Assembly (NCBI GenBank): GCA_963791675.1
Contig: CAWBTD010000002.1
Span: forward strand, 120 to 64,119
Direction of reading: 5' to 3'
DNA from: Bryobacterales bacterium
Lineage (GTDB): Bacteria > Acidobacteriota > Terriglobia > Bryobacterales > Bryobacteraceae
Length of the DNA stretch: 64,000 nt
Shown: one piece after another, positions 2,416 to 37,743 of the stretch
Position numbering within the stretch: position 1 is the first letter of the stretch
How the letters are laid out: each line of letters opens with the position of its first letter
The notes under the pieces: model-generated
Told to the model about the DNA's origin: nothing
Seen by the model: the letters and a program-made list of their open reading frames with translations, nothing else
Database searches by the model: none
Translations under genes and position numbers: made by a program

Positions 2416-2434
2416 CGTCCTTTATTCTAACGTT

Positions 2435-3553: not shown

Positions 3554-3595
3554 ACCGCCGGGAACTTTCTGCCGAAAAATTCGTATTTTTAATAG

Positions 3596-4043: not shown

Positions 4044-4051
4044 GAATCTAA

Positions 4052-6612: not shown

Positions 6613-6685
6613 ATTGATCCTTACCCTGGGAATATGGTAAGTTCTTTATTTAACAGCTACTTTGCTATTTCCTGTTTGAAAATCA

Positions 6686-7665: not shown

Positions 7666-7671
7666 TTTTTC

Positions 7672-8220: not shown

Positions 8221-8235
8221 AGCAAGGAACGAATT

Positions 8236-10636: not shown

Positions 10637-12484
<1,848 letters not shown>

Positions 12485-12488
<4 letters not shown>

Positions 12489-13192: not shown

Positions 13193-13201
13193 CGTTTCGA
13201 G

Positions 13202-14416: not shown

Positions 14417-14463
14417 CAGAAAGCCTCTGGGTGAATTCTACACGGAATAGGGGAGGGGAAAAC

Positions 14464-14541
<78 letters not shown>

Positions 14542-14617
14542 AAGCTTCTATTTTACACGGTTCTTTCCCATTCGCTTTTGTCTTTTCTGTCCACCCGGTT
14601 TGGGAAAATAAGCAGCA

Positions 14618-16283: not shown

Positions 16284-16292
16284 AACAAGCTG

Positions 16293-17588
16293 TTATTTCA
16301 CCACGGTGCTGAGTAACTGATAAAACGTCGGAAACGAAACACTGGCAGCTTCTGCCCCTTCGATGCGACATTCCCCGTCCGCGCGCAAGGCGGCAACGGC
16401 GAAGGCCATGGCAATGCGGTGATCTCCGAAAGAATCAAACGTAGCTGCCCGGAATGTCTGCCTGCCTGGAATCTGCATTCCATCCGGGGATTCTTCCGCG
16501 ACAACACCCATACGGCGAAGGTTATCTACTACCGTTTTGATGCGATCGGTTTCTTTTACGCGCAGTTCTCCGGCATCGCGAATGGTTAATCCTTCTTCGC
16601 TGGCAGCGCCCAGCACAGCCAGCACGGGGATTTCATCAATCAAGCTAGCTGCGAGATCGCCTTCAATCACTCCGCCGCGAATGGGCGCGGAACGAACCAT
16701 GATGTCTCCCACTAACTCACCGTTGACTTGTTGCAAATCCACTACTTTGATGTAAGCTCCTGCGGAAAGCAGAAAGTCCAACAGGCTGGAGCGGGTCGGG
16801 TTCAGGCCCACGCCACGGATCATCAGGTCCGAGCCAGGAACCAGAAGAGCCGCAACCAGGAAAAACGCGGCAGAGGAAAGGTCGGCAGGCACAAAGAGTT
16901 CACGGCCTTGTAATGATGGACGGCCCTGGATGGTGATTACTTTTTGCCTGGTTTCCACGGAAGCCCCGAATTCATTCAATGCAATTTCGCTATGGTCTCG
17001 GGAGCGCACCGGTTCGCGAACCGTAGTGATACCTTCGGTAAACATTCCCGCGAACAGGACGCATGTTTTCACCTGAGCACTAGCTACCGGCAACGTGTAG
17101 TCAATAGAGTGCAAGTTGGTGCCATGAATGGTTAAAGGGGGGAATCGGTCTTCCCGTGCTTCGATGCGGGCGCCCATTTCCGCCAGCGGTGCCATGATGC
17201 GTCGCATCGGCCGGCCGGAAAGTGATTCATCGCCGAAGATGCGGCTGGTAAAGGGCTGCGCCGCCAATGGTCCAGCCATCATGCGGATCAGCGAACCGGA
17301 GTTGCCCGCATCCAGGTCGCTCGCCGGTTTCTGCCAACCGTTAAGACCTTTGCCGTGGATGGTTACGGTAGTGCCGTCTTCTTCTACCTCTACCGGAATC
17401 CCAAGGGCGCGTACAGCTCCCAGTGTGGAGTGGCAATCCGCACCAGTGGAATAGTGATGGATTTTCGACTTGCCTTCTGCCAGGGAGGCCAGAATGGCAT
17501 AACGGTGAGAAATGGATTTATCGCCGGGCAATACCAGCGTGCCAGATACGGAACTGGCAGGTTGCACAATCATGTAGGGACTCTTCAA
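16293..17588 (-). CDS. aroA: 3-phosphoshikimate 1-carboxyvinyltransferase (EPSP synthase)
   Basis: LPGDKSISHR, LDAGNSGS and RVKETDRI motifs. Confidence 0.95.
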   Translation of the reverse strand: MKSPYMIVQPASSVSGTLVLPGDKSISHRYAILASLAEGKSKIHHYSTGADCHSTLGAVRALGIPVEVEEDGTTVTIHGKGLNGWQKPASDLDAGNSGSLIRMMAGPLAAQPFTSRIFGDESLSGRPMRRIMAPLAEMGARIEAREDRFPPLTIHGTNLHSIDYTLPVASAQVKTCVLFAGMFTEGITTVREPVRSRDHSEIALNEFGASVETRQKVITIQGRPSLQGRELFVPADLSSAAFFLVAALLVPGSDLMIRGVGLNPTRSSLLDFLLSAGAYIKVVDLQQVNGELVGDIMVRSAPIRGGVIEGDLAASLIDEIPVLAVLGAASEEGLTIRDAGELRVKETDRIKTVVDNLRRMGVVAEESPDGMQIPGRQTFRAATFDSFGDHRIAMAFAVAALRADGECRIEGAEAASVSFPTFYQLLSTVVK

Positions 17589-17595
17589 GTCTACC

Positions 17596-18681
17596 TTGCG
17601 CTACAGTGTGTCATTGGGCCAGCAAAGACGAATTGCTATTTCCAGCCAGAATGGAGTAGGTGCCTGCAAGCGTGCCGTAGAAGTCATGGCCGCAGGCGGC
17701 GATACGCTGGAAGCAGCGATTGCCGGAGTAAATCTGGTGGAAGATGATCCCACAGACCATACCGTCGGCTATGGCGGCCTTCCCAATGAAGACGGGGTAG
17801 TCGAATTGGACGCATCCGTCATGCACGGACCTACCCGGCGCGCCGGAGCAGTGGCCGCGCTACGAGGCATTCGTTATCCATCCCGCGTAGCAAAGTTGGT
17901 GATGGAACACACAGACCACGTCATGCTGGTGGGGGAAGGCGCGCTAAGGTTTGCGAAAGCACATGGCTTCCAGGAGGAAGATCTGCTTACGCCTCAGACG
18001 CGCTTAGCGTGGTTAGTTTGGAAGAAATCTTTGCGAGACGCTGCCGGGCATACGAACTGGGCAAGCTGGACTCATCCCATGGCTCTTCCAGAAAGCAATT
18101 CCACAGATTCCACGGTAGATGATGACTTGCAAGGATGGGCCAAGGATGTAGCTGCTCATCCTCCCACGGGAACCATTACTTGCCTGACTCTGAACGAGCG
18201 CGGAGAAATGTCCGGCACTACCACTACCAGCGGGTTAGGATGGAAAATTCCCGGGCGGGTGGGCGATTCCCCCGTGATCGGTGCTGGTTTGTACGTGGAC
18301 CAGGACATTGGCGCTGCCGGCTCTACCGGGCGTGGCGAGGAAAACCTTCGGATTGCCGGTGCTCATCTGGTGGTGGAAGGCATGGGACGAGGACTGTCAC
18401 CGGAAGAAGCCTGCCTGGAGGCGCTACGCCGCGTGGTGCGAAATTTTCACGGAAGCGAAGCAAAACTGTTGGAATTCGACCTGAACTACTACGCTTTACG
18501 AAAAGATGGCGAGTATGCAGGAACGTCTTTATGGGACCATGTGATGCGGCGCGGAGTGGTTTCCCGGAAACGGTTTGCTGTGTGTGACAACAATGGCAGC
18601 AGGCAGGAAGATTCCGCCTATTTGAGGACGCGCCAGAGTGAAAATAAACCCGAATTGCAGCGGCAGCCATCGGAAAGGTAA
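17596..18681 (+). CDS. Ntn-hydrolase asparaginase (glycosylasparaginase / isoaspartyl peptidase family)
   Basis: VGYGGLPNEDG is present, and the autoprocessing/nucleophile region is GTITCLTLN...GTTTTSGLGWKIPGRVGDSPVIGAG. The TTG start lies only 7 nt from the divergent aroA start. Confidence 0.85.
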   Translation: MRYSVSLGQQRRIAISSQNGVGACKRAVEVMAAGGDTLEAAIAGVNLVEDDPTDHTVGYGGLPNEDGVVELDASVMHGPTRRAGAVAALRGIRYPSRVAKLVMEHTDHVMLVGEGALRFAKAHGFQEEDLLTPQTRLAWLVWKKSLRDAAGHTNWASWTHPMALPESNSTDSTVDDDLQGWAKDVAAHPPTGTITCLTLNERGEMSGTTTTSGLGWKIPGRVGDSPVIGAGLYVDQDIGAAGSTGRGEENLRIAGAHLVVEGMGRGLSPEEACLEALRRVVRNFHGSEAKLLEFDLNYYALRKDGEYAGTSLWDHVMRRGVVSRKRFAVCDNNGSRQEDSAYLRTRQSENKPELQRQPSER

Positions 18682-18789
18682 AAGCAAGTTTGGGAATCCC
18701 AGAAAAAATAAGCAATAATACTCACTTGGCTTGGGCTTATCCTCTACTACGTTTCACAAAGAGGGAGGTTCGCGCCTCTAGAACAGTAA

Positions 18790-19443
18790 ATGCCCCAGAT
18801 CTTTAGCTACAGCTCAAATAGTTACACCAGAGTCGGGATCATTGTTGCCATTTTTACGTTGGTTGGCGCTGGCGGAATGTTATTTCAACTCGGGGCCGAC
18901 TCCTCATATGCAACAAATCAGGGTGTGGCCAGGGTGCAACCAGTTCAGTTCAGCCATTCGCACCATGTGAGTTCCATGGGCATTGACTGCCGGTACTGCC
19001 ATACGTCGGTAGAAAATTCTTCATTTGCGAACATTCCGCCGACCAAGACTTGTATGAATTGCCACTCTCAGATCTGGACAGGAAGTCCGGAGCTGGAGAT
19101 GGTTCGCACCAGCTATCAAACAGATAAGTCCATTCCCTGGGTCCGCGTGCATGACCTGCCGGAGTTTGTGTATTTCAATCACAGCATCCATGTCAAAAAG
19201 GGAATCGGGTGTGAAAGTTGCCATGGCCGTGTGGACATGATGCCATTGGTATACCAGAAGAATTCTTTAGAGATGCGCTGGTGCCTGGATTGCCATCGCA
19301 ACCCGCAAAAATATGTGCGGCCCCGCAACGAAATTTTTACGATGGGGTATAAATATCCAGCGAATCAGGAAGAAGTTGGGCTGCAACTCATCAAGGAATA
19401 CAAAATCCAGCGTTTGGAGACGTGCAACACTTGCCACCGCTAG
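18790..19443 (+). CDS. actA: Alternative Complex III subunit ActA, pentaheme cytochrome c
   Basis: One N-terminal TM helix and five CxxCH motifs (CRYCH, CMNCH, CESCH, CLDCH, CNTCH). It is the first gene of the act cluster. Confidence 0.9.
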   Translation: MPQIFSYSSNSYTRVGIIVAIFTLVGAGGMLFQLGADSSYATNQGVARVQPVQFSHSHHVSSMGIDCRYCHTSVENSSFANIPPTKTCMNCHSQIWTGSPELEMVRTSYQTDKSIPWVRVHDLPEFVYFNHSIHVKKGIGCESCHGRVDMMPLVYQKNSLEMRWCLDCHRNPQKYVRPRNEIFTMGYKYPANQEEVGLQLIKEYKIQRLETCNTCHR

Positions 19444-19449
19444 AAAAGG

Positions 19450-22400
19450 TTGGTGAATGTGGGCGCTGAAAGAGTTTTCCCAGATAAGCAAAGTGAAAGA
19501 ATGCCGAGCGAACAAGAACATTTAGATCTGGCCACAGCAAAAGAGAGGCTGGATAAAGCAAAGGGTCGCCATTACTGGAGAAGCCTGGAAGAATTGGCGG
19601 CTTCCCCCGGCTTTGAGCAGCTACTGCATAAAGAATTTCCACGCCAGGCCTCCGAATGGGACGGCGGCGAGGAAGGGCGACGTAACTTTCTGAAGCTCAT
19701 GGGCGCCTCCTTGGCGCTTGGCGGGCTGAGCGCCTGTACCCGTCAACCGGAAGAGCGGATTTATCCGTATGTGAATGCCCCGGAAGCCATCATTCCGGGC
19801 AAGCCTTTGTATTTCGCTACTGCCTTCACCATGAGCGGTGTTTCCACTGGCGTGCTGATGGAAAGCCACATGGGTCGGCCCACGAAAGTGGAAGGAAATC
19901 CCCTTCACCCGGCCAGTTTGGGCAGTACGGATGTGATGACGCAAGCGTCCGTATTAAATCTGTACGACCCGGATCGCTCACAGACGGTAAATTTTTTAGG
20001 GGAAATTCGTACCTACTCTTCTTTTTTGACCATGGTGCGGGATGCGCTGGCGATACAGCAATCGAGCCGTGGGCGCGGAGTTCGGATTTTAACGGAAACC
20101 ATCGGGTCGCCTACCCTGGCCGACCAGATGAAAACCGTTCTCAGCCTTTACCCGGAAGCCAAGTGGTGTCAGTGGGAGCCGCTAGGCGCACAAAATGCGC
20201 GGCTTGGCTCGCAGATGGCTTTTGGGCAGTTTGTAAACACGGTTTATAAATTTGACGCTGCCGATGTGGTGCTGACGGTTGATTCCGATTTTCTGTGCGT
20301 CGGCCCCGCCAGTTCGCGTTATGCCCGCGACTTTATCAGCCGTCGCCGGGTCCGGGGCGAACAGCAGGTTTCCATGAACCGGATGTATTCCATTGAGAGT
20401 ACGCCGACCGCCACAGGAGCCAAAGCCGACCACCGGTACCCCTTGAAGCCTTCCGAGATTCCGGGGTTTGTGCGTGCGTTAGCAGGTGCCACTGGCGTGA
20501 ACGGAGCAGGAAGTGGTGCTGGCCCTGCGGGAAATTGGTTCAATGCGCTGGTGAAGGACCTGCAGGCACATCGCGGGTCCAGCATTGTGATTGCGGGCGA
20601 TGAGCAGTCGCCGGAAGTGCATGCACTGGTTCATGCCATCAATGGCGCACTTGGAAATGCCGGAAAAACAGTCCTCTACATCGATTCCCTGGAAGGAACC
20701 CCGGTCGATCAGCTATCGCAGTTGAGGCAGCTAGCAGCGGACCTGGATGCCGGAGCCGTGGAGATGCTGTTCATTATCGGCGGCAATCCGGTTTACAACG
20801 CTCCTGCTGATCTCCAGCTTGGGGAAAAGATTGCGAAAGCAAAACTGCGAATGCGTTTTGGCCAGTATCAGGATGAAACCTCGGCCTTATGCCAATGGCA
20901 TATTCCGGAATCCCATCCGTTGGAATATTGGAGTGATGGACGCGCTTTCGATGGCACTGTGACCATTTGCCAGCCTTTGATTGCTCCGCTCTATGAGAGC
21001 CACTCGCCGCATGAATTTCTCGCCATGTTTACTGGCAATCCGCAACAATCCAGCTATGAAGCGGTGCGGGCGTACTGGCAAGCACAGCATAAGGGTGGTG
21101 ACTTTGAAAGCTGGTGGCGTAAGTCCATTCATGATGGGTTGGTTGCGGGAAGCGCTCTGCCGCCCAAAACAGTCACGGTAGGCAACCTTCCGGCCAGCCG
21201 GAACACTGCTGCTTCCGGGGTAGGCTTGGAAGTTTCCTTCCATCCTGATCCTTATATTTACGATGGCCGTTTCGCCAATAACGGATGGCTTCAGGAATTG
21301 CCTCGCCCCATGAGCCGTTTGACATGGGACAACGCCGTAATGGTGAGTCCTGCCACGGCCAAGCGCTTGGCATTGGAAAACGAAGACTACGTTGAGTTGA
21401 AATACAACGGCCGCACTGCCTGGGGGGGCGTCTGGATCACGCCTGGCCAGCCGGATGAATCCATTGCGGTGAACCTGGGTTTTGGCCGTACTCATTCCGG
21501 CCGTGCTGGAAACGGAGCAGGGTTCAACGCTTATCCGCTTCGCACGTCCGAAGGAATGACATATGTAAGCGGCGTGGAACTGCGGAAGCTGAATAAAAAA
21601 TTCACGCTTGCCACTACGCAGCACCAGAACATGATGGAAGGCCGCGCGGTGGCCCGTCAGGGAACGCTGGAAGAATACCGGAAGAACTCAGAGTTCGCCC
21701 GGGAAATGGGCGAAGAACTCCCTGGAAAAGGATTGACGATTTACCCGGAAACCTGGAAGTACGAAGGGTATGCCTGGGGAATGTCGATCGATCTGAACGC
21801 CTGTGTCGGCTGCAATGCCTGCGTGGTAGCCTGCCAATCGGAAAACAACATTCCGGTAGTCGGGAAAGACCAGGTAAACCGGGAACGCGCTATGCACTGG
21901 TTGCGGATTGACCGTTACTATGAAGGCAACGTTGAGAATCCGAAGACCCTGTTCCAGCCGGTAGCCTGCGTCCATTGTGAGAATGCCCCGTGCGAAATTG
22001 TATGTCCGGTGGAAGCGACGCTCCATGACCAGGATGGCCTGAACAACATGATTTACAACCGCTGCGTCGGCACGCGGTATTGCTCCAACAACTGCCCTTA
22101 TAAAGTACGTCGCTTCAATTTCTATCTTTATAACGACTGGGAAACGGAGAGCGTGAAGCTGCAACGAAATCCTGATGTGACGGTTCGGAGCCGGGGCGTA
22201 ATGGAGAAGTGCTCCTACTGTGTGCAGCGGATCAATCATGCCAAAATCACAGCGGAAAAAGAAGACCGTAAGGTGCGGGATGGCGAGATTGTTACCGCTT
22301 GTGAAGCGGCTTGCCCAACCCAAGCGATTCTCTTCGGGGATCTGAATGATCCCACCAGTCGTGTACGAAAAGAAAAGCATGAAGGGCTTACCTATAACCT

Positions 22401-22482
22401 TCTGGGTGAACTGAATACCCGTCCCCGGACTACCCATATGGCATCCCTTCGTAACCCGAACCCGGAGATTGAGGCAAGTTAG
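19450..22482 (+). CDS. actB: Alternative Complex III subunit ActB (molybdopterin-oxidoreductase-like domain fused to a 4Fe-4S domain)
   Basis: Tat motif RRNFLKLMGASLALGG, and C-terminal ferredoxin clusters CVGCNACVVAC, CVHCENAPC and CVGTRYCSNNC. About 1000 aa. The start is uncertain (TTG at 19450 or ATG at 19501). Confidence 0.9.
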   Translation: MVNVGAERVFPDKQSERMPSEQEHLDLATAKERLDKAKGRHYWRSLEELAASPGFEQLLHKEFPRQASEWDGGEEGRRNFLKLMGASLALGGLSACTRQPEERIYPYVNAPEAIIPGKPLYFATAFTMSGVSTGVLMESHMGRPTKVEGNPLHPASLGSTDVMTQASVLNLYDPDRSQTVNFLGEIRTYSSFLTMVRDALAIQQSSRGRGVRILTETIGSPTLADQMKTVLSLYPEAKWCQWEPLGAQNARLGSQMAFGQFVNTVYKFDAADVVLTVDSDFLCVGPASSRYARDFISRRRVRGEQQVSMNRMYSIESTPTATGAKADHRYPLKPSEIPGFVRALAGATGVNGAGSGAGPAGNWFNALVKDLQAHRGSSIVIAGDEQSPEVHALVHAINGALGNAGKTVLYIDSLEGTPVDQLSQLRQLAADLDAGAVEMLFIIGGNPVYNAPADLQLGEKIAKAKLRMRFGQYQDETSALCQWHIPESHPLEYWSDGRAFDGTVTICQPLIAPLYESHSPHEFLAMFTGNPQQSSYEAVRAYWQAQHKGGDFESWWRKSIHDGLVAGSALPPKTVTVGNLPASRNTAASGVGLEVSFHPDPYIYDGRFANNGWLQELPRPMSRLTWDNAVMVSPATAKRLALENEDYVELKYNGRTAWGGVWITPGQPDESIAVNLGFGRTHSGRAGNGAGFNAYPLRTSEGMTYVSGVELRKLNKKFTLATTQHQNMMEGRAVARQGTLEEYRKNSEFAREMGEELPGKGLTIYPETWKYEGYAWGMSIDLNACVGCNACVVACQSENNIPVVGKDQVNRERAMHWLRIDRYYEGNVENPKTLFQPVACVHCENAPCEIVCPVEATLHDQDGLNNMIYNRCVGTRYCSNNCPYKVRRFNFYLYNDWETESVKLQRNPDVTVRSRGVMEKCSYCVQRINHAKITAEKEDRKVRDGEIVTACEAACPTQAILFGDLNDPTSRVRKEKHEGLTYNLLGELNTRPRTTHMASLRNPNPEIEAS

Positions 22483-22485
22483 TCC

Positions 22486-23886
22486 ATGTCAGCTCCTCTG
22501 CAACCAGTAGAACTTCCTGATAAAGTCAGGGTCGGTCCGATCATCGGCCCTGAAGAAAATCTCACCACTGTTACCGATACGCTGGCGGGGATCGTTCTTC
22601 GACGAAAAACGACCTATGGCTGGCTGATCGGCTTTGCTGTTTCGTTTTCCGTCATGATGGTGCTCCTGATGGCGATGACGTACCTTTTCCTGAAAGGTGT
22701 CGGCATCTGGGGTATTAATATGCCCGTGGCCTGGGGATTCGCCATTGTGAACTTTGTGTGGTGGATCGGTATCGGACACGCTGGAACTCTGATCTCGGCC
22801 ATTCTGCTGTTATTGAATCAGTCTTGGCGGAATGCGATTAACCGTTATGCCGAAGCAATGACGCTGTTCGCCGTGGCCTGCGCGGGCTTGTTCCCGATCA
22901 TGCACATGGGCCGCCCTTGGCTGGGTTACTGGCTCTTGCCTTATCCAAATACCATGTGGCTCTGGCCGCAGTTCCGCAGTCCGCTGGATTGGGACGTGTT
23001 CGCGGTTTCCACTTATGCCACCATTTCGCTAGTGTTCTGGTATGTGGGATTGATACCCGACGCAGCTTCCCTGCGGGATCAGGCGCACCATCGCTGGCAG
23101 CAGGTGATCTACGGAGTTTTAGCTTTAGGATGGCGTGGTTCTGCCCGGCACTGGCAGCGATACGAAAAAGCTTCCTTGTTGCTGGCTGGTTTGGCGACAC
23201 CTCTGGTGCTTTCCGTTCACACCGTGGTTAGCTTTGACTTTGCCGTGGCAATTCTGCCCGGCTGGCATACCACGATTTTTCCACCGTACTTTGTGGCAGG
23301 TGCCGTGTACTCCGGCTTTGCCATGGTGCTGACGCTGATGATTCCCGTGCGCAAGGTGTACAAGCTGGAAAGCCTGGTCACCATGCGCCATATCAACAAC
23401 ATGGCGAAAGTGATGTTGACCACGGGCTTGATTGTGGGTTACGGCTACATGATGGAGGCATTTTACGCTCAGTACAGCGCTAACATCTATGAAGGGTTCA
23501 TGATCAAGAACCGGATGACCGGCCCGTATGCTCCCTATTACTGGTGCTTGATTTTCTGCAACATCATTACTCCGCAGTTCCTGTGGATTAAGCGCGTCCG
23601 GAACAACTTAGTCATTCTTTGGATTGTCAGCATCATCGTTAACATCGGCATGTGGCTGGAGCGGTTTGTGATCGTAATCACCAGCTTGCACCGGGACTTT
23701 CTGCCGTCCTCCTGGGGCATGTACTATCCAACGGCGTGGGATTGGGCCATTTACATCGGAACAATGGGTCTGTTTATGACGCTCATCTACTTGTTTATGC
23801 GCGCCATCCCAATGATTACGATTCATGAATTACGGCTGCTGGTGCCTTCCGGCGCTAAGGTGAAGGAGGCTGTAAAACAGCCATGA
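22486..23886 (+). CDS. actC: Alternative Complex III subunit ActC (NrfD/PsrC-like quinol-interacting membrane subunit)
   Basis: Polytopic NrfD-like protein in the canonical position after ActB. Confidence 0.88.
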   Translation: MSAPLQPVELPDKVRVGPIIGPEENLTTVTDTLAGIVLRRKTTYGWLIGFAVSFSVMMVLLMAMTYLFLKGVGIWGINMPVAWGFAIVNFVWWIGIGHAGTLISAILLLLNQSWRNAINRYAEAMTLFAVACAGLFPIMHMGRPWLGYWLLPYPNTMWLWPQFRSPLDWDVFAVSTYATISLVFWYVGLIPDAASLRDQAHHRWQQVIYGVLALGWRGSARHWQRYEKASLLLAGLATPLVLSVHTVVSFDFAVAILPGWHTTIFPPYFVAGAVYSGFAMVLTLMIPVRKVYKLESLVTMRHINNMAKVMLTTGLIVGYGYMMEAFYAQYSANIYEGFMIKNRMTGPYAPYYWCLIFCNIITPQFLWIKRVRNNLVILWIVSIIVNIGMWLERFVIVITSLHRDFLPSSWGMYYPTAWDWAIYIGTMGLFMTLIYLFMRAIPMITIHELRLLVPSGAKVKEAVKQP

Positions 23887-24437
23887 GTCATTCCGGTTTA
23901 ATTGAAACAACTCCCATCTACGGCATCATGGCGGAGTTTCGGGATTCCACAAATCTTGTGGAAGCGGCTACCAGGGCGAAATCGGCTGGATACCGCAAAA
24001 TGGACGCCTATACGCCTTACCCGGTGGAAGATCTGGAAGAATCTCTGGATCTTCACGATAACCGCATTTCCTTATATGTGCTGTTAGCGGGGATTTGCGG
24101 AGCGACATTCGGATTTGGGTTCTTGTCTTGGGTGAACACGGTTTCGTATCCCCTGAACATCGGCGGACGCCCCATGATTAGCACTCCCATGTTTATTCCG
24201 ATTACGTTTGAATGCACCATTCTGGCAGCAGGTCTTACTTCTGCCATTGGAATGCTGTTATTGAACGGGCTGCCGATGCCTTACCATCCCGTATTCAATG
24301 TTCCTCGGTTTGCGCGTGCTTCTCAGGACGGATTTTTTCTGTGCATTGAAGCCACAGATCCGAAGTTTGACCGTAAAGGCACGGCGGAGTTTCTGGAAAG
24401 TTTAGGCGCGGAAGAGGTATCGGAAGTTGCGAACTAA
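23883..24437 (+). CDS. actD: Alternative Complex III subunit ActD (DUF3341)
   Basis: IYGIMAEF near the N-terminus, a soluble domain plus two TM helices, about 180 aa, in the canonical position. Confidence 0.85.
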   Translation: MSHSGLIETTPIYGIMAEFRDSTNLVEAATRAKSAGYRKMDAYTPYPVEDLEESLDLHDNRISLYVLLAGICGATFGFGFLSWVNTVSYPLNIGGRPMISTPMFIPITFECTILAAGLTSAIGMLLLNGLPMPYHPVFNVPRFARASQDGFFLCIEATDPKFDRKGTAEFLESLGAEEVSEVAN

Positions 24438-25206
24438 GTTGCCATCAGGAAGTGCTGGAAAACTGATTCTTGCTGCGGTGGCGGTGTGTGCGCTTTCCGC
24501 CTGCCGCCAGGACATGCACAACCAGCCCCGCTATAAACCGCTAGGAGAAACCCAGTTTTTCCCTGATAACCGGCAGTCCCGTCCCTTGCTCGCAGGGGTA
24601 GTGGCTCGTGGTGAATTGCGGGAGGCTAGTGAGTTCTACACCGGTAAATCAACTGTTCTAGGAAAAGATGGAAAACCACTGGATCTGGATTACTTTCCTT
24701 TACCTGTCACCAGAGAGTTAGTGGAGCGTGGCCATCAGCGGTTTGATGTGTTCTGCTCGCCTTGCCATGGCCGGATCGGGAATGGGTTAGGAATGATTGT
24801 GCAGCGTGGCATGAAGCAGCCGCCTTCTTACCATATTGATCGGCTGCGAAATGCACCTCCTGGCCATTTCTTTGATGTGATCACCAATGGGTATGGCGCA
24901 ATGTACAACTACGCGGCGCAAATTGGCCCGCGTGACCGGTGGGCCATTATCTCTTACCTCCGAGCTTTGCAATATAGCGAAAATGTGAATGCATCGGAAT
25001 TGACGGCGGATGCGCGCGCCAAGCTTCCTGTTCCCGGTGCTCATCCGCAGCAAGGGGAAGCCGGAGAAGGCCAGACGATAGATCTTCCTTTGGTGCCCTC
25101 CACGCCAGACCGTGTAAATTCTCCAGAGAGTGCGCCTCTTCCTCCTGGAACGCCTGCGACTCCCATGAGTCCGTCGCCCGGCAAAGCAGGGGCTGAAAAC
25201 AAATGA
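24427..25206 (+). CDS. actE: Alternative Complex III subunit ActE (monoheme cytochrome c lipoprotein)
   Basis: Lipobox ALSAC and a single heme motif CSPCHG. In the canonical position. Confidence 0.85.
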   Translation: MRTKLPSGSAGKLILAAVAVCALSACRQDMHNQPRYKPLGETQFFPDNRQSRPLLAGVVARGELREASEFYTGKSTVLGKDGKPLDLDYFPLPVTRELVERGHQRFDVFCSPCHGRIGNGLGMIVQRGMKQPPSYHIDRLRNAPPGHFFDVITNGYGAMYNYAAQIGPRDRWAIISYLRALQYSENVNASELTADARAKLPVPGAHPQQGEAGEGQTIDLPLVPSTPDRVNSPESAPLPPGTPATPMSPSPGKAGAENK

Positions 25207-26408
25207 TGATTGAAAACCAATACACGCTCGCACCTGCCTTGGGCGTGGATTTGAAACGGTATCAGAACGTAGCAGCCATTGTCGGAATCATTGGAGTTCT
25301 GCTGTTGGCGGTCGGTTTCTTTACCACTACGCCTCAACAGTTTTTACGGTCCTATTTGATCGGCTTCCTGTTTTGGAATGGCATGGCTCTGGGATGCTTC
25401 GGCTTAGTGATGATCCAATATATGACGGGCGGCGCTTGGGGAATGATGATTCGTCGTCCCCTGGAGGCCGGAACCCGAACGTGGCTGTTGGGTGCTGTTG
25501 CCGTTCTGCCGATTTTATTTGGAGTTCATTCGCTTTACATCTGGGCGCAACCAAGCGTAGTTGCGCATGACAAGGTAATTCAGGGTAAGCAGTTCTACCT
25601 GAACGTCCCTTTTTTCTATATCCGTGCGGTAATTTATTTCGTGATCTGGGGCGGCCTGATTACCCTGCTGAACCGATGGTCTCTGGAGCAGGACCGGACG
25701 GGCGACATCAATATCGCGAAAAAACTGGAAAAACTAAGTGGCCCAGGCATTGTGATCTATACCTTCACCATGACTTTTGCGGCAACGGACTGGATCATGT
25801 CTTTAGATCCGCATTGGTTTTCCACGATCTATGGCCTATTGATCTGTGTAGGGCAGACTCTTTCCGCCATGGCGCTTATTGTTGCCACTTTGGTGTTGAT
25901 GGGGAACTATGCGCCCTTAAAAGGCTTAATCACCAAGAGGCATCTTCATGATCTAGGCAAACTCCTGCTTGCCCTGACCATGCTTTGGGCATATCTTTCC
26001 TTTTCACAGTTAATTCTGATCTGGTCCGGCAATCTTCCGGAAGAAATTAGCTGGTATATCAATCGGTTGAATGGCGGATGGCAATATGTGGGAGCAATTC
26101 TTCTTTTGTTTCACTTTGCTTTCCCCTTCTTGATGCTGCTTTCCCAGGCATTGAAAAAGAACCCTCGCACCATTCAGAAGATCGCAATCTATGTTGTGGT
26201 CATCCGACTTGTGGATATCTTCTGGCTGGTGGAGCCTAACTTCACTGGTTCCCACTTTCAACTGCATTGGCTGGATGTTGTGGCTCCTGTGGCAATTGGC
26301 GGCCTATGGATGGCTTACTTTTTCTACAACTTGCGGCAGCGGCCGCTTCTGCCGATCAACGCCCCTGATTTACAAAAGGCACTGAACCATGGACGACATC
26401 ACCACTAG
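25203..26408 (+). CDS. actF: Alternative Complex III subunit ActF (second NrfD-like membrane subunit)
   Basis: Polytopic membrane protein that follows ActE with a 4-nt overlap. Confidence 0.85.
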   Translation: MMIENQYTLAPALGVDLKRYQNVAAIVGIIGVLLLAVGFFTTTPQQFLRSYLIGFLFWNGMALGCFGLVMIQYMTGGAWGMMIRRPLEAGTRTWLLGAVAVLPILFGVHSLYIWAQPSVVAHDKVIQGKQFYLNVPFFYIRAVIYFVIWGGLITLLNRWSLEQDRTGDINIAKKLEKLSGPGIVIYTFTMTFAATDWIMSLDPHWFSTIYGLLICVGQTLSAMALIVATLVLMGNYAPLKGLITKRHLHDLGKLLLALTMLWAYLSFSQLILIWSGNLPEEISWYINRLNGGWQYVGAILLLFHFAFPFLMLLSQALKKNPRTIQKIAIYVVVIRLVDIFWLVEPNFTGSHFQLHWLDVVAPVAIGGLWMAYFFYNLRQRPLLPINAPDLQKALNHGRHHH

Positions 26409-26898
26409 ACATAATCCAAGTGATCCCGACGATTTGGCGGAAAATCCACGTGTTGCTTATGAACATGGCGACGCGGACGTATTCACGATTTCGAAGTATG
26501 GCATTGGTCTGGCATTTGGCGTTCTGATCGCGGCTTCGGCCATGTGGGGCCTGTTCTCCTGGTTCCAGGCGCAGGACCGGGCGGAAGTGAATAACGTGCC
26601 AAAAACAATTTTGGATGAGCGGCCCAAACTGCCGCCATCGCCCCGGCTGCAAGCCACGCCGAAGCTCGACCTGCGGGAGTTCCGTGCGGCAGAAGATCAT
26701 ATGTTGGGTAGCTATGGCTGGGTGGACCCGGCACGTCAGATTGTCCGGATTCCGATTGATCAAGCAATTACCGCTGTGGTGAAAAAAGGGCTGCCCTCGA
26801 AACCGGTGCAAGAAGGTGAAGGGTTGGATCGAGATGGGTTCCGTCTGCTTCCTGAGTATTCCAGCAGCGGAAGAACCTCTGAAAAAGTAGCGCAATGA
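26389..26898 (+). CDS. ACIII/oxidase-associated single-TM protein (possible ActG-like), function unknown
   Basis: One TM helix (GIGLAFGVLIAASAMWGLFSWF). It is translationally coupled on both sides, overlapping actF by 20 nt and SCO by 4 nt. Confidence 0.55.
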   Translation: MDDITTRHNPSDPDDLAENPRVAYEHGDADVFTISKYGIGLAFGVLIAASAMWGLFSWFQAQDRAEVNNVPKTILDERPKLPPSPRLQATPKLDLREFRAAEDHMLGSYGWVDPARQIVRIPIDQAITAVVKKGLPSKPVQEGEGLDRDGFRLLPEYSSSGRTSEKVAQ

Positions 26899-27710
26899 CC
26901 AAGTGGGTTTCCATTGCAATTCTGCTGGCAGGCTCTCATGCCTTTGCCCAGCAGGATTTGCTGAACATGAAAGGTGTTGACCGGCCTGCTCCGTTGAAAA
27001 ACGTGGGCATCGACCAAAAGCTCAACGCACAAGTACCGCTGGACCTCCCTTTCCGTGATGAAGCGGGGCGGGATGTTCGGTTGGGGGATTATTTTGGAAA
27101 GCGTCCGGTGTTGCTGGCTCCGGTGTATTACTCCTGCCCGATGCTATGCACCCAGATTCTGAATGGTTTAACAAGCAGCTTGAAAGCAGTTGCCTTTAAT
27201 CCTGGCCAGGAGTTTGAAGTGGTAGTGGTCAGCTTCGATGCGCGGGAAAAACCGCCTTTAGCCGCGGAAAAGAAAGCGTCCATGATGAATTTCTACCATC
27301 GTCCGCAAACCGCGAATGGATGGCATCTGCTGACGGGTGACTTGGCTTCGATTAAAGCTCTTACCGATGCGATTGGTTTCCATTACAAATACGACGTCCA
27401 TACGAATCAGTTTGCTCATGCCAGCGGCATCATGCTGCTTACTCCTCAGGGAAAGCTGTCTCGATACTTTTATGGGGTGGAGTACGCGCCCAAGGACATT
27501 CGTCTGGGGTTAATCGAAGCCTCTCAAAATAAGATTGGGAATCCTGTGGATCAGGTTCTGCTGTTTTGCTATCACTATGATCCGACCACGGGGAAATATA
27601 CTCCGATCGCTTTTGGCGTGTTGCGGCTGGCCGGTGTTGCCACGCTTCTGCTGTTGGGCGGTTTTGTTTTTATTAGTTTCCGGCGTGACTCGAAGGAGCG
27701 CGGCCGTTAG
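26895..27710 (+). CDS. SCO1/SenC-family copper chaperone
   Basis: Thioredoxin-like CxxxC motif YYSCPMLC, a signal peptide, and position immediately upstream of oxidase subunit II. Confidence 0.85.
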   Translation: MTKWVSIAILLAGSHAFAQQDLLNMKGVDRPAPLKNVGIDQKLNAQVPLDLPFRDEAGRDVRLGDYFGKRPVLLAPVYYSCPMLCTQILNGLTSSLKAVAFNPGQEFEVVVVSFDAREKPPLAAEKKASMMNFYHRPQTANGWHLLTGDLASIKALTDAIGFHYKYDVHTNQFAHASGIMLLTPQGKLSRYFYGVEYAPKDIRLGLIEASQNKIGNPVDQVLLFCYHYDPTTGKYTPIAFGVLRLAGVATLLLLGGFVFISFRRDSKERGR

Positions 27711-27728: not shown

Positions 27729-28725
27729 ATGGATACGAATTCAATTCCGTTGTTCCCAGAACAAGCCTCTTCTATCGCAGGCAATGTGGACGCGCTCTAC
27801 GCCTTTCTGGTTCTGGTGACGGCGTTTTTCTCTTTACTGATTGCCGTGCTGATTGTGTACTTTGCGATCAAGTACAGACGCCGGTCAGAGGACTTTGTGC
27901 CCGGTCCGGTACACGGAGGACTTGCGCTTGAAATTACCTGGTCCGTGATTCCGCTCGGCCTTTCCATGGTGATGTTTGCCTGGGGAGCCAAGCTGTTTTT
28001 TGAAGAATCACGGCCTCCCGCCGATGCCATGGAAATCTATGTCACCGGCAAGCAGTGGATGTGGAAGCTTCAGCATATGGAAGGGCAGCGGGAAATGAAC
28101 GAGTTGCACGTTCCCGTGAATCGAAATATCAAGCTCACCATGACGTCTGAAGACGTGATTCACGACTTCTTTATCCCGGCGTTCCGTTCGAAGTCAGACG
28201 TGGTGCCGGGTAAGTATACTACCGAATGGTTTCGTCCAACAAAGGTAGGGACGTTACCATATCTTCTGCGCCGAGTATTGCGGTACACGGCACTCCAACA
28301 TGATCGGCACTGTTTACGTAATGGAACCTGCCCAATATCAGGAGTGGCTGACCAGCGGAGGCGCGCAGGGAAGTCTTGCCCAGAGGGGCGGAGCCTTGTT
28401 CCAAACGCTTGGTTGTAGCAACTGCCATGTTTCGGATGGGCAAGGTCGCTGTCCAAATCTGGTTGGTGTCTTTGGCAAACCAGTACGTACCAATACAGGC
28501 GTAGTCACCGCAGATGCCTCCTATATTCGGGAATCCATTCTGGACCCTTCGGCAAAGGTTGTCACAGGTTATGAAAACATCATGCCTACATTCAAGGGAC
28601 AGGTAAGCGAAGATGGCATTCAACAACTGATTGAATATGTCAGGTCGATTGGCCCCACTGCCGGGGATACCTCCCGCGTGCAAACAGGTGGCAGTGCCGA
28701 ATGGCAGCAATGCACAGCCTCCTAG
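27729..28725 (+). pseudogene. coxB: caa3-type cytochrome c oxidase subunit II (CuA domain plus C-terminal cytochrome c), reading frame broken by one extra nt at about 28249-28251
   Basis: The first frame reads ...DVIHDFFIPAFRSKSDVVPGKYTTEWFRPTKVG and then becomes nonsense. The +1 frame continues RYHIFCAEYCGTRHSNMIGTVYVMEP...GCSNCH... to the stop at 28725. The +1 frame is closed by TAG at 28246-28248, so the shift is pinned to GGG-A. Confidence 0.85.
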
Positions 28726-28811
28726 CAGGGTGGACAGCAATCCGAAGGGCGGCACCTCGCCCGCAGCGAAATAGTTGATGCAACAATGGGAATAACAGAG
28801 AAGCGAGTAAT

Positions 28812-30450
28812 ATGATTATCACCGCACCTCCCGAGGTCGAAACTCCGAAAAATTATATCAACGCGGAACTCGGGTTAAAGAGCTGGCTTTTCACGCAAGA
28901 TCATAAGCGAATTGCCATTCTTTACCTGATTACAGTTACCTTTTTCTTTTTGTTGGGTGGAATTTTTGCCACGCTGATTCGTTTTGAATTAGCAACGCCG
29001 GGCGCAAATCTTGTAGAGTCGGACGTCTACAATAGATTGTTCACAATGCATGGCATTGTGATGATCTTTCTGTTCTTAGTGCCCTCCATTCCTGCCACAT
29101 TAGGGAATTTTTTAATTCCGCCCATGATTGGGGCAAAAGATCTTGCCTTTCCAAGAATTAATCTCCTGAGCTGGTATTTGCTGGTAGCAGGCGGATTGCT
29201 GACTTTGTACGTCATGGTCACCGGTGGAGTGGATACCGGATGGACGTTCTACACGCCCTTGAGTTCTTCCTATGCAAACGGATATGTGATCGCCACTGCT
29301 ACGGCTATCTTTATCGCTGGCTTTAGCTCGATCCTAACCGGACTGAATTTCGTTGTTACTATTCACCGGATGCGTGCGCCCGGCATGACGTGGTTTCGCC
29401 TGCCGCTTTTCGTGTGGGCCCATTATGCCACGAGCCTGCTCCAGATTCTGGGTACGCCGGTTCTGGCTGTGACCATCCTGCTGCTTGCTTTAGAGCGAGG
29501 ATTGCACATCGGTATTTTCGATCCCGCATTGGGCGGTGATCCCGTGTTGTTTCAGCATCTGTTCTGGTTCTACTCCCATCCTGCCGTTTACATCATGATT
29601 TTGCCGGCCATGGGTGTGATCAGTGAAGTGGTTTCCACCTTTTCCCGCCGTCAACCAATGGGATATACATTTATTGCATTCTCCAGTGTGGCGATTGCGG
29701 TGTTCGGCTTTTTGGTGTGGGGACATCATCTTTTCGTCAGCAGCCAATCCGTATATGCAGGCATGGTTTTCTCCGTACTCAGTTATCTGGTGGCTATTCC
29801 CTCCGCTATCAAAGTTTTTAACTGGACCGCGACCATGTATAAGGGGTCGGTAGATCTTTCCACCCCCATGCTGTACGCCATCGGTTTCATTGGGCTGTTC
29901 ACCATTGGTGGTTTGACCGGATTGTTCCTGGCCTCCATGGGAATGGATGTCCACTTGACCGATACCTACTTTGTGATTGCTCACTTCCACTACATCATGG
30001 TGGGAGGAGCCATTCTGGGTTATCTGGCTGGCATTCATTTCTGGTGGCCTAAGATGACGGGGCGCATGTACTCAGAAGGATGGTCAAAGATTTCCGCTGT
30101 GATTGTGTTCCTGGGGTTCAATCTTACCTTTTTCCCCCAGTTCATCTTAGGTTATCTGGGTATGCCGCGCCGGTATCATGTGTACCCGCCAGAATTCCAG
30201 GTATATAACGTGCTTTCCTCGGCGGGTGCCAGTATTCTTGGAATTGGGCTGATTTTGCCGGTTTTTTACCTTACTTACTCTTTGTATAAAGGTAAGCATT
30301 GCTGGTCCGAATCCCTGGGGTGCTACCGGTTTGGAGTGGCAGACTGCCTCGCCTCCAATCACGGAAAATTTTGTCGTCACTCCTGTAGTGACAGTAGAAG
30401 CATACGATTACGCAGCCAGCGACGGAGCGAAAACAGTTGTCAGCGCATAG
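28812..30450 (+). pseudogene. coxA: cytochrome c oxidase subunit I, reading frame broken by one extra nt at about 30294-30300
   Basis: All heme/CuB motifs are present ([20 protein letters not shown]). After ...[11 protein letters not shown] the annotated frame turns to nonsense. The +1 frame gives [37 protein letters not shown]... with a stop at 30448-30450. Confidence 0.88.
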
Positions 30451-31091
30451 CGGTACGGTTGCCGTACGGCATCATTTTGAAACAGCCGGGCAGCAGAAGG
30501 AAGCCTCTACCCTGGGGATGTGGGTCTTTCTGGTGACGGAAGTGATGTTTTTTGGAGGCATGTTCATGGCATATATCGCCTACAGACATGCCTATCCCCT
30601 GGCCTTTGCGGCTGCCAGCCACAAGTTGAACATTCCGTTGGGCGCGCATCAATACGGGCGTCCTGATTTGCAGCAGCTTGACCATGGCTATGGCTGTTCA
30701 TTCGGCAGCGATGGGCAGCAAAAAGCTTCTGATTGCATTTCTGATTTCTACGCTTTTGTTAGGCGGAGTGTTTTTAGGAATCAAGGCAACAGAGTATGCG
30801 GACAAGATCGAACACCACGAAGTGCCGGGACCAAACTTTCATTTTGAAGGCCCGGACCCGCAACACGCCCCCTTATTCTTTTCCCTGTATTTCGGCCTGA
30901 CCGGGCTTCATGCCACTCACATGATCGTAGGGGCGGTAATCCTGATTGTGCTGATTGTGCAGGCTTCCAAAGGCCGCTACACCGCGGCTTGGCATACCCC
31001 GATTGAAATGTTCGGGCTATACTGGCATTTTGTCGATATTATCTGGATCTTCTTGTTCCCATTGCTGTATTTGATTGATCCACGAGGTTAG
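30437..31091 (+). pseudogene. coxC: cytochrome c oxidase subunit III, reading frame broken by one extra nt at about 30647
   Basis: The N-terminal part reads [30 protein letters not shown]...HKLNIPLGA. The +1 frame continues INTGVLICSSLTMAMAVHSA...GLYWHFVDIIWIFLFPLLYL to the stop at 31091. Confidence 0.85.
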
Positions 31092-31099
31092 CCGAAACT

Positions 31100-31399
31100 A
31101 TGTCTTCTGAGCACATTGTTCCTACTCGCGTGTATTACATGGTATTCGCGGCCCTTTTGGTCCTTACGGGAGTCACAACCGCGATTGCGTATGTGGACTT
31201 AGGGCGGTTCAACATTGTCGTGGCGCTTGCGATCGCCATCTTTAAAGCCAGCTTGGTCGTGTTGTTTTTTATGCATATCAAATACAGCACAACGCTGACT
31301 AAGGCGATCGTATGCAGTGGTGTGATCTTCCTGATCATCATGGTGTTCTTCACCATGTCTGATTTGCTGACGCGCAATATCGCAGCGCCAGGACGGTAG
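31100..31399 (+). CDS. caa3-type cytochrome c oxidase subunit IV
   Basis: 99 aa with three hydrophobic helices, located directly after subunit III. Confidence 0.75.
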   Translation: MSSEHIVPTRVYYMVFAALLVLTGVTTAIAYVDLGRFNIVVALAIAIFKASLVVLFFMHIKYSTTLTKAIVCSGVIFLIIMVFFTMSDLLTRNIAAPGR

Positions 31400-31416
31400 A
31401 ATTAACCGGCTCTCCT

Positions 31417-32061
31417 TTAGCGCTCCTGCTTTTCCCCTAAACTGGTCATAATTCTTTGCACATAACTAGTTGTTTCCGCAAGGGGTGGAATGCCTCCGGC
31501 ATCATCCACCTTGCTTGCTCCCGCGTTATAAGCACTCAAGGCAAGGCTGACATCACCCGCATAACGTGTTAATAGCTGCTTCAAAAGCTTGGCACCGGCG
31601 GTGATGTTCTGGTCCGGGTCGAAGGGATCGGAAACGCCAAACTGCTCTGCAGTGGCAGGCATCAACTGCATCAGTCCCATTGCACCTTTCGCGGAAACCG
31701 CACAAGGCCGAAATGCGGATTCCTGTTGAATCACTGCCTGGAGAAGTTCGGCGCGCAAACCATGTGTGCGAGCTGTTTTCTCCACCATATCTTTTGCCCT
31801 TGCAGGAGCAAGTGCAGGACACGTTGCTGTCGCAACCGTCTGCGGAACTGGCGACTCCATAGTGACAAAAAAGTCAGAAGCGACAGGCATACTTAGCTTT
31901 GCCTGCTTCCGAACAGAAGCAACCTGGGCCGCAAGGGAAGGTTGCATGGCTTGCTCAACTGCCATGCGTTGAGCCGCTGCTGCGGCTTCCTGCTGATCTG
32001 CAGATGCTTTCACCCCAGGGAGCAGACCGGAAAAGAGAATCACAAGGGTGAAGCGCCTCAT
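31417..32061 (-). CDS. secreted lytic transglycosylase (SLT domain)
   Basis: Signal peptide, with the catalytic region QQESAFRPCAVSAKGAMGLMQLMPATA and YNAG. Confidence 0.88.
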   Translation of the reverse strand: MRRFTLVILFSGLLPGVKASADQQEAAAAAQRMAVEQAMQPSLAAQVASVRKQAKLSMPVASDFFVTMESPVPQTVATATCPALAPARAKDMVEKTARTHGLRAELLQAVIQQESAFRPCAVSAKGAMGLMQLMPATAEQFGVSDPFDPDQNITAGAKLLKQLLTRYAGDVSLALSAYNAGASKVDDAGGIPPLAETTSYVQRIMTSLGEKQER

Positions 32062-32120
32062 CTGCTGATCTCATCGGCTTCCCGTTATGGAACTTTACGG
32101 CTCTAACCCTAGAATTTGCT

Positions 32121-32146
32121 CAAACTCCTGATGATGGAGTCGATAA
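32121..32146 (+). promoter_or_regulatory. candidate sigma-28 (FliA) promoter upstream of fliS
   Basis: CAAA-N15-GTCGATAA compared with the consensus TAAA-N15-GCCGATAA. It lies 20 nt upstream of the fliS ATG. Confidence 0.5.
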
Positions 32147-32165
32147 GCCTTTATCGGACAAAAAG

Positions 32166-32612
32166 ATGAGCAATGCACTTAGCACCTACTTCGAACAAGA
32201 GATTCTTTCCGCAGATCCCATGAAACTGGTCTGCTTGCTTTATCAAGGGGCAATCACAGACGTGCGCGAAGCTCGCAGGCAATTACAAGCAAGCAATGTT
32301 TCCGCTCGATGCGCCGCAGTCACCAAGGCATGTGACATTCTTGGTGAACTAACACAGTCCCTTGATCTGAAGCAAGGAGGCGAATTGGCCGCCCGACTTC
32401 GGCAACTTTACACTTACATGTTGAATCGAATGGTGGAAGCGAACCTTCAGAAGCGAGATGAACCATTAGCGGAAGTGCTCTCATTGCTGTGTACGCTTCA
32501 AGAAGGCTGGCAAGAGATATCGAAGCAGCAAGCTACAACATCACGAGTGTATGGCAATGCCTTTATGGCAGCACAAAACCTGGAATCAGCTTCTCACTCC
32601 TGGAGTTTTTGA
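32166..32612 (+). CDS. fliS: flagellar export chaperone FliS
   Basis: Typical FliS four-helix sequence (ILSADPMKLVCLLYQGAI...ACDILGEL..SLD...GGELAARLRQLYTYM). Confidence 0.88.
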   Translation: MSNALSTYFEQEILSADPMKLVCLLYQGAITDVREARRQLQASNVSARCAAVTKACDILGELTQSLDLKQGGELAARLRQLYTYMLNRMVEANLQKRDEPLAEVLSLLCTLQEGWQEISKQQATTSRVYGNAFMAAQNLESASHSWSF

Positions 32613-36423: not shown

Positions 36424-36975
36424 TTATGTAATGATTCCTGGCGTAGCGGACATCGGATCACGTCCTAGATCGCGATTGATAATCTGCCATGCCTGACTGC
36501 CTGGAGCCGTGCCATAGCGTGCAAATAAGTTTGCTGCTAAGCCAGCGTTGATGGCGTTTGCTGAGCCTGGCACCATAATGTTGCGCTGAGATTCCGACCA
36601 AGCGAAATCACTGCCTCCCATGGCATCTTCCCGTACCGTGCCGCCCAATAACGCTGCGATTTGTTTCGCGGTGCCTGCTGAAGCAAGCTCAGCAGGATTG
36701 AGTGCTGTTGGGGACCCAACCGGATTTGCAGCAGTTGCACCTTGCACATATACAGGCTGCACTACAGCAGGCGTACTCGGGGTGATTACAGGCTTGGTTG
36801 TCACAGGGATGCTCGCCTGTGTTGCGTTTGCGCTTGTTGACGTACTGCTATTAGGGGTTGCGGCATTGCTGAACAAGCTCGCGAATGACTGCGTTTGTGC
36901 TGGTTTGGCTGCTGCCCGGGTCGTAGTGTGCGCGGCAACATGCAACTGATGATTACTGGTGACATTTCGGATCAT
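36424..36975 (-). CDS. hypothetical protein embedded between flgF and flgG (183 aa)
   Basis: The N-terminal half is S/T/A/P-rich and low in complexity, followed by a C-terminal region of about 90 aa that looks globular. I recognise no flagellar family. The gene is tightly packed, 15 nt from flgG and 24 nt from flgF. Confidence 0.55.
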   Translation of the reverse strand: MIRNVTSNHQLHVAAHTTTRAAAKPAQTQSFASLFSNAATPNSSTSTSANATQASIPVTTKPVITPSTPAVVQPVYVQGATAANPVGSPTALNPAELASAGTAKQIAALLGGTVREDAMGGSDFAWSESQRNIMVPGSANAINAGLAANLFARYGTAPGSQAWQIINRDLGRDPMSATPGIIT

Positions 36976-36999: not shown

Positions 37000-37743
37000 T
37001 CAAACTTTGGCAACTTCTTCCACTGCGAGCCGGTTCATCTCCGCTCCTATGTTCATTGCTTTCTGTAACATCTCAAACTGACGCATCACGCTAACCAGAC
37101 GCACCGCGCTTTCCGCTGAGCCCACGTTTGAGGTTTCCAGCTTTCCTTGATATACCTCTGCGGTAGATACTTGCGGCTTAGTAGTTGTGTCGGATGTATA
37201 GAAGTAGTTCAAACCCTGTTTACTCAATTCCTTCGGCTCATTAAAGGAATCCACTTCTAATTGGCCAATCGTTTGCCCGTCCTGCTGCACCGTTCCATCG
37301 CGCAAGATGTTTAAGGGGCTGGAGGAAACTGTTTGTATGGTGCCGCCGCTCCGGCTGCGTACAGCCATTCCATCTGCTGTGGTGAGTGTCCCGCCTGCTG
37401 AAAGCTTAAGATTTCCATTGCGGGTATACAACACTCCGGATGGACCATTTACAGCAAGAAAGCCTTTCCCGGAAAGAGCCACATCAAGGGGATTATCCGT
37501 AACGTGCAAAACACCTTGAGAAAAATCAGTCCATGGTTTTTCTACAACAGGTAACGTATCGGGTGAAGCTCCATTGCCTTGCTCTGCTGAATCCGCAGCA
37601 TCTTGCGATACATAGAGGCTATAAAACTCGTGGTCTACCTTGTAACCACCCGTAGAAGAGTTAGCCAGATTGTTTGCCAACATATCCAGCGACTCCATGC
37701 GAGCACGCATGCCGCTGGCGGCGGAAATGGAAAGAGCATCCAT
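37000..37743 (-). CDS. flgF: flagellar proximal rod protein FlgF
   Basis: N-terminal MDALSISAASGMRARMESLDMLANNLANSST and C-terminal rod-family block SNVGSAESAVRLVSVMRQFE. Confidence 0.9.
   Translation of the reverse strand: MDALSISAASGMRARMESLDMLANNLANSSTGGYKVDHEFYSLYVSQDAADSAEQGNGASPDTLPVVEKPWTDFSQGVLHVTDNPLDVALSGKGFLAVNGPSGVLYTRNGNLKLSAGGTLTTADGMAVRSRSGGTIQTVSSSPLNILRDGTVQQDGQTIGQLEVDSFNEPKELSKQGLNYFYTSDTTTKPQVSTAEVYQGKLETSNVGSAESAVRLVSVMRQFEMLQKAMNIGAEMNRLAVEEVAKV

Follow-up and report, generated by a model that had tools for sequence, protein, structure and literature searches.

In the caa3-type haem-copper oxidase of Thermus thermophilus (2YEV), subunit II has CuA ligands and ends in a CxxCH cytochrome c domain, and a single fused protein serves as subunits I and III. 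In Rhodothermus marinus and Flavobacterium johnsoniae, genes for alternative complex III (ACIII) lie beside those of a caa3 oxidase. The subject here is a locus of this kind in a 64,000-nt stretch of a metagenome-derived contig from a Bryobacterales bacterium (referred to as the window), which contains an ordinary respiratory cluster, actABCDEFG-sco-coxB-coxA-coxC-coxD, encoding the ACIII and A2-type caa3 oxidase of a Bryobacterales-like acidobacterium. As in the Thermus enzyme, subunit II has the CuA ligands and the C-terminal cytochrome c domain, and subunit I has a tyrosine-serine motif (YSHPAV) and all six of the histidine ligands; as in R. marinus and F. johnsoniae, ACIII genes accompany the oxidase, the act and SCO genes standing directly upstream. 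The window differs from T. thermophilus in that subunits I and III are separate genes, and from known caa3 loci in that three of the oxidase genes are out of frame as deposited. The four extra bases responsible are very probably local consensus errors of the metagenome assembly, in an organism whose A2-type caa3 oxidase is probably intact and functional.

The same act-sco-cox synteny is also found in relatives, of which the closest syntenic ones are L082 and L083 (JGI) and L084 (GCA_025462965.1), with Cox proteins 82-89% identical to those of the window. By the table of open reading frames (ORFs), three-frame translations and tblastn, the frame is lost in each of coxB, coxA and coxC, and a +1 shift recovers the orthologous protein. 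All three genes are on the + strand: (i) coxB (27729..28774), for a subunit II of the caa3 type with a C-terminal cytochrome c domain; (ii) coxA (28812..30450), for subunit I of an A2-type haem-copper oxidase; and (iii) coxC (30518..31091), for subunit III. Each of the four breaks consists of one extra base, in a run of two at most. An earlier interpretation made from the letters of the window (the sequence-only reading) had assigned exactly one extra nucleotide to each gene. This is borne out for coxA and coxC, but coxB contains two, since the CoxB of L084, used as a tblastn query, matches successively in frame 3 (27729-28253), frame 1 (28231-28698) and frame 2 (28703-28762).

The first break in coxB (break 1) lies within 28249..28255 (+ strand, as for the other breaks). 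Its lower limit is a TAG in the destination frame at 28246-28248, which the sequence-only reading had used to pin the site to 3 nt, at GGG-A (28249-28251). The limit stands, whereas the placement does not: orthologues read KVG-T-YHIFC, with the codons ACG/ACC TAT CAC for T-Y-H, where the window has ACG T TAC, and this places the extra base best as a T of the TT at 28254/28255. The second break in coxB (break 4), near its 3' end, has formal limits of 28631..28722, set by stops at 28628 in the destination frame and at 28723 (TAG) in the source frame, and its best placement is GAA-T-GGC at about 28699-28702. Residues 331-351 of the L084 CoxB match frame 2 of the window at 28703-28762 (tblastn), and the frame-2 tail, ...PPSRVDSNPKGGTSPAAK, corresponds to the conserved orthologue tail ...GRVDPDPKG.... 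The RVDxxPKG motif in this tail is conserved, and the fourth shift recovers ...RVDSNPKGG..., so that coxB ends at the TAG at 28772-28774 and not at 28725, as had been proposed.

The remaining two breaks agree with their earlier placements near 30300, with a stop at 30450, and near 30647, with the frame running through to 31091. In coxA, the break (break 2) falls within AAGCATT (30294..30300): homologues read SLKxGxxAGPNPW, of which the conserved glycine (GGT, 30291-30293) still belongs to the source frame, with IAGPNPW already in the +1 frame. In coxC, the break (break 3) falls within GCGC (30644..30647; GGC GCG C ATC), where orthologues encode L-G-(G/A)-I-N-T through GGC GGC ATC or GGT GCC ATC. 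The start of coxC, previously taken as a TTG at 30437, is instead the ATG at 30518, which gives a protein of 190 amino acids (a.a.), against 190-191 a.a. in orthologues.

When one base is removed at each break site, the three genes encode proteins of 347 (CoxB), 545 (CoxA) and 190 a.a. (CoxC), all of which align end-to-end with their orthologues (of 348 a.a. for CoxB and 190-191 a.a. for CoxC); no local stretches of nonsense were found in the alignments of the restored proteins with their orthologues. By Pfam, CoxB contains COX2_TM, COX2 and Cytochrom_C domains, CoxA covers positions 1-436 of the 436 of COX1, and CoxC matches COX3. The best matches among solved structures are 2YEV_A for CoxA and 2YEV_B for CoxB, and residues 22-307 of CoxB align continuously with 2YEV_B, straight across the junction at break 1. 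As the sequence-only reading had maintained, every ligand motif is intact after restoration, including the ligands of CuA, haem c, haem a/a3 and CuB: CoxB has His145, Cys180, Cys184, His188 and Met191 for CuA, together with CSNCH at 229-233 and Met285, and CoxA has MHG at 79, YSHPAV at 254, GHH at 304 and HFH at 391. The YS motif, which takes the place of the glutamate of helix VI, is reportedly an established sign of the A2 type in the classification of these oxidases.

The breaks are present in the assembly as deposited, and excision of the window did not create them, since the shifted coxA ORF (28812-30536, 574 a.a.) is identical, letter for letter, to a database protein (P0003) known from one occurrence, in an unannotated 64,799-bp contig of NCBI and ENA. 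All four fall inside 2,393 of the 64,000 nt, within the 2.4 kb over which clustering had been noted previously; the scan-statistic P of about 2e-4 means that this clustering needs a local cause.

Alignment with orthologues, a check that the sequence-only reading had proposed, indicates that the breaks are private to the window and absent from about 200 relatives. The coxA site is crossed continuously in 80 GTDB loci among the matches listed and in 119 database homologues, while coxB is unbroken in 78 loci and coxC in 75. The 120 nearest CoxA homologues are 539-548 a.a. long and unbroken, the closest being 89% identical. A second assembly of the species was not found in the collections searched, and exact look-ups of window proteins and of P0003 matched no record. 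Closer relatives were not found either: the best non-self CoxA match among 5.8 billion proteins is the one with 89% identity, a scan of JGI metagenomes with the fast-evolving SLT protein returned nothing above 60%, and a scan of genome contigs returned nothing closer than 79% among the matches listed.

Indel-induced frameshifts are known from long-read (Nanopore) consensus sequences (PMC9262707; proovframe, bioRxiv 10.1101/2021.08.23.457338). Colinear frame transitions were surveyed in the act, sco and cox genes of 84 related loci, a comparison made on the relatives and not on the window itself. They were present in 9 of the 30 long-read loci, most of which are Nanopore assemblies made with Flye and Medaka, whereas the 54 short-read loci had none (Fisher P = 4e-5). 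Of these nine, eight belong to the MFD metagenome-assembled genomes (MAGs), which derive from micro-diverse soils by Nanopore-only sequencing, Flye assembly and one round of Medaka (PMC12313526). Insertions dominate, as 19 of the 23 transitions are +1, and the transitions are clustered: in locus L061, six are packed into 2.4 kb and the 5.7 kb that follow are free of them. In L081 (88% CoxA identity; a 3.39-Mb record named 'contig_19467'), the act and cox genes are in many pieces and the flagellar genes are intact, with nine transitions within 10 kb (at least nine in its act and cox genes, 650-12279) and none in the adjacent 9-kb flagellar part (12300-21638). With L081 left aside, the survey gives 0.061 transitions per kb, and the window has 0.0625 per kb. 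The database signature of P0003 (NCBI and ENA) is also that of P0004, which comes from the Flye-style record contig_19467.

The window thus resembles long-read indel artefacts in having single-base breaks in otherwise conserved genes that are insertion-biased, clustered and of similar density. Classical Nanopore errors occur in homopolymers, and in this respect both the four breaks of the window and the inspected breaks of L081, L072 and L077 differ from them; in base-level alignments, the breaks of these three loci are one-base insertions that avoid homopolymers, as in the window (mostly so in L081). The description of sites 1 and 2 as short homopolymers in the sequence-only reading therefore does not make them classical homopolymer slips.

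Breaks of +1 type occur at nearly the same codons of coxC in L077 (7824-7832), L072 (7933-7935), L081 (11968-11975) and the window (30644-30647). The L077 break (GGG-C-TTC) is one codon upstream of site 3 of the window, and those of L081 and L072, both within FLGIKGVEY, lie three codons from each other. Such near-coincidence in independent assemblies suggests context-dependent error hot spots.

Four clustered +1 insertions outside homopolymers, as found in the surveyed long-read MAGs, make the pattern of the window the pattern of those assemblies. The contig would accordingly have come from a long-read type of metagenome assembly, and the cluster would mark a stretch in which the reads behind the consensus were heterogeneous or gave poor support, as when micro-diverse strains are collapsed; Flye is known to collapse close strains (PMC8302730). 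Every one of the sites would fit two juxtaposed alleles of a variable codon position, an idea that would need four transversions. Recruitment of reads across species was considered as a cause and judged unlikely, given a G+C content at third codon positions (GC3) of 0.72-0.79 in the relatives against 0.48-0.59 in the window.

Several points weigh against consensus error. The window contains 57 homopolymers of at least 6 nt, and none of them has a frame error. The rest of the contig is clean, which speaks against a generally raised error rate and leaves a local cause to be assumed. The sequencing technology of the contig is something we infer from the relatives, and the mechanism of the artefact is likewise a proposal. 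Finally, one enzyme has all four breaks in its structural genes, and a selected or tolerated loss of that enzyme would give the same picture.

The strongest competitor is that the insertions are real and that the lineage inactivated its caa3 oxidase very recently, the first break having ended selection so that later indels were neutral, with ACIII and SCO kept, perhaps for another oxidase elsewhere in the genome. Besides the restriction to one enzyme, with its scan-statistic P of about 2e-4, the intact neighbours and other genes of the window favour this, as do break contexts that are not long homopolymers and the lack of any frame error in the rest of the contig. Were it true, the lineage would have only just lost caa3 while keeping ACIII. 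However, there is no sign of decay of the oxidase, nor of relaxed constraint on it. Across 120 sequences, CoxA has 286 near-invariant columns, and the window deviates at one of them, by the conservative change K75R; this is within the normal range, as 25 of the 120 sequences have at least one deviation. At the 48 near-invariant columns of CoxB and the 51 of CoxC, positions downstream of the breaks included, there are no deviations, and all metal ligands are kept. Neutral drift long enough for four independent indels would be expected to leave 5-20 changes at these 385 columns, and the probability of finding one or none ranges from 0.04 to 2e-8, depending on the substitution:indel ratio assumed.

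Rates of amino-acid-changing substitution (dN) tell the same story. Relative to sister branches, the cox genes have a dN of 2.6-3.4 on the window branch, within the 1.2-4.7 of 13 neighbouring genes, and the differences between pre-shift and post-shift segments are inside the same spread. The post-shift segments of coxB and coxC do diverge from orthologues about twice as much as sister lineages do from each other, which was examined as a trace of decay and set aside, as this ratio is normal for the neighbouring genes. The lesions themselves are also of one kind, namely four 1-nt insertions, with no deletion, nonsense codon or larger lesion. An insertion-only pattern has a probability of 0.83^4 = 0.47 under the long-read survey, against 0.3^4 = 0.008 if an insertion share of 30% is assumed for real indels. 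Pseudogene decay in bacteria is reportedly deletion-biased and tends to favour homopolymers. Lookalike clusters of breaks recur in further long-read MAG loci but never in a short-read one, and the actB of L081, despite four breaks, is still 75-91% identical to its orthologue. Taken together, recent inactivation is an unlikely explanation of the four breaks.

The weakest proposal supposes real insertions and mRNAs from which a functional oxidase is made by +1 ribosomal frameshifting (or quadruplet decoding) at each of the four sites. It is very unlikely and far less probable than inactivation. No break is found at any of these sites in about 200 orthologues, the closest (82-89% identity) included. 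Programmed +1 frameshifting is known in bacterial prfB, among other cases (review, PMC5009743), and the mitochondrial cox1 of Perkinsus has multiple +1 sites, with a shift at every AGG/CCC (PMC2952869). The window resembles these systems in having several +1 corrections within oxidase genes, the same correction being needed at all four breaks, with downstream sequence conserved as in relatives. Moreover, the incoming frame at site 4 ends in a stop (TCC TAG C, 28720-28726) that might act as a slow A-site codon; no other site could coincide with a stop codon, and this one could be placed elsewhere within its limits. The window differs from programmed systems in having no conserved site, common codon, slippery P-site codon or rare A-site codon, and no clear stimulatory element, be it a known recoding RNA or an SD-like sequence upstream. 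The four contexts (ACG-T-TAC, AAG-C-ATT, GCG-C-ATC and GAA-T-GGC) share nothing in register, in agreement with the earlier statement that no slippery motif is common to the sites. At the best-supported positions, ACG-TTA, AAG-CAT and GCG-CAT allow no re-pairing of the P-site tRNA, and the re-pairing once suggested for site 1 (GGG to GGA) disappears with the corrected position. Rare or hungry codons were sought at the break sites and not found, the 0-frame A-site codons TTA, CAT and TGG being used 13.4, 10.8 and 13.1 times per 1000.

Searches for known recoding elements gave nothing clear. Rfam returned no recoding element, and a SECIS_4 match at 30061 was dismissed as sub-threshold (E = 0.17). 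The 80-nt stretches that follow the sites do not exceed shuffled sequence in folding stability (z from -0.66 to +0.69). A suppressor-like tRNA is absent, the window having a single tRNA gene, an ordinary tRNA-Pro(GGG). A purine-rich heptamer, AAAGGTA, lies 5' of breaks 1 and 2 (28241-28247 and 30288-30294), but its registers differ and the sharing was judged to be chance; it has six copies on the + strand of the window, four of them in intact sequence. If recoding did occur, a bacterial respiratory enzyme would depend on multiple recoding events at dissimilar, non-canonical sites. The sequence-only reading had listed its three options without choosing among them, from sequencing or assembly error at the top to recoding at the bottom, and this ranking is borne out. 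Real inactivation and recoding, which it had also entertained, are both disfavoured, there being no relaxed constraint, no slippery or hungry codon, Rfam recoding element or downstream structure and, in the surveyed loci of relatives (the window itself not being part of that test), break clusters in long-read assemblies only.

The genes around the three broken ones are uninterrupted, as had been stated before. The ACIII genes actA-actG (18790..26898, + strand) are intact by Pfam and tblastn: actA (18790-19443), actB (19450-22482), actC (22486-23886), actD (23883-24437), actE (24427-25206), actF (25203-26408) and actG (26389-26898), all on the + strand. Pfam matches ActD over the full profile and also returns NrfD, multihaem c and 4Fe-4S matches, and L082 and L084 orthologues used as tblastn queries give one match in one frame per gene. 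The SCO1/SenC copper chaperone (26895..27710, +) covers positions 8-133 of the 134 of the SCO1-SenC profile and is 83-84% identical to its orthologues in one frame (tblastn). Downstream, coxD (31100..31399, +) encodes an intact prokaryotic subunit IV (COX4_pro in Pfam; one frame against orthologues), so that subunits III (COX3, in the restored CoxC) and IV are in the same operon. Between coxD, SLT and FliS, the relatives L082-L084 have response-regulator and FlaG genes that are absent from the window (31399-32166), in which SLT follows coxD by 17 nt and FliS follows SLT by 104 nt.

In all, about 60 genes of the window besides the three broken ones have full-length Pfam profile matches; beyond the act genes, SCO and coxD, they comprise those of the ATP synthase operon, about 30 flagellar genes and the genes for glucose-6-phosphate dehydrogenase, glucokinase and EPSP synthase, among others. 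In a codon-usage track of reading frame, trained on the window, the frame switches at gene borders only, and the gaps between called genes hold ordinary small flagellar genes. For the non-cox genes between 18.8 and 40.5 kb, every orthologue match by tblastn is in a single frame; beyond this interval, which is the one with close orthologues, short shifts of C-terminal tails are possible. A shift in composition across the cox region was looked for and not found. The G+C content of the window is 51%, against 59-61% in L081, L082 and L084, the relatives to which the GC3 range given above applies.

Other features of the window concern genes unrelated to the oxidase. A single ORF of 788 a.a. (58175-60541, +) joins a photolyase in frame to a flavoprotein with NAD_binding_8/Amino_oxidase domains; the photolyase part is complete (DNA_photolyase and FAD_binding_7, the latter to profile position 187 of 203), and stops in both other frames around the junction (about 59530-59580) indicate no obvious frameshift there. 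This ORF may be a natural fusion or the product of a small deletion. Between flgG and flgF lies an ORF of 183 a.a. with no Pfam match (36424-36975, -), in the same frame as flgF (37000-37743); flgG and flgF are adjacent in L081-L083 and separated by a 342-nt gap in L084. In an overlapping gene pair (435-2164, +), an AAA_21/AAA_15 ATPase gene is combined with one for a DUF4276 protein, an architecture reminiscent of two-gene defence modules. Two ORFs of 235 and 404 a.a. without Pfam matches (12485-13192 and 13202-14416, -) are 9 nt apart in the same frame and may represent either a pair of genes or a single one interrupted by an in-frame stop.

Read literally, the deposited sequence would describe a soil acidobacterium that has lost its main aerobic terminal oxidase, or one that uses an unprecedented form of multi-site recoding. 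Caution is advised by the survey, in which about one in three long-read MAG loci has clustered, insertion-biased breaks in the act, sco or cox genes. Frame-aware annotation or read-level checks are needed for such MAGs, as metabolic inferences drawn from them ("no caa3 oxidase") and their pseudogene counts may be wrong.

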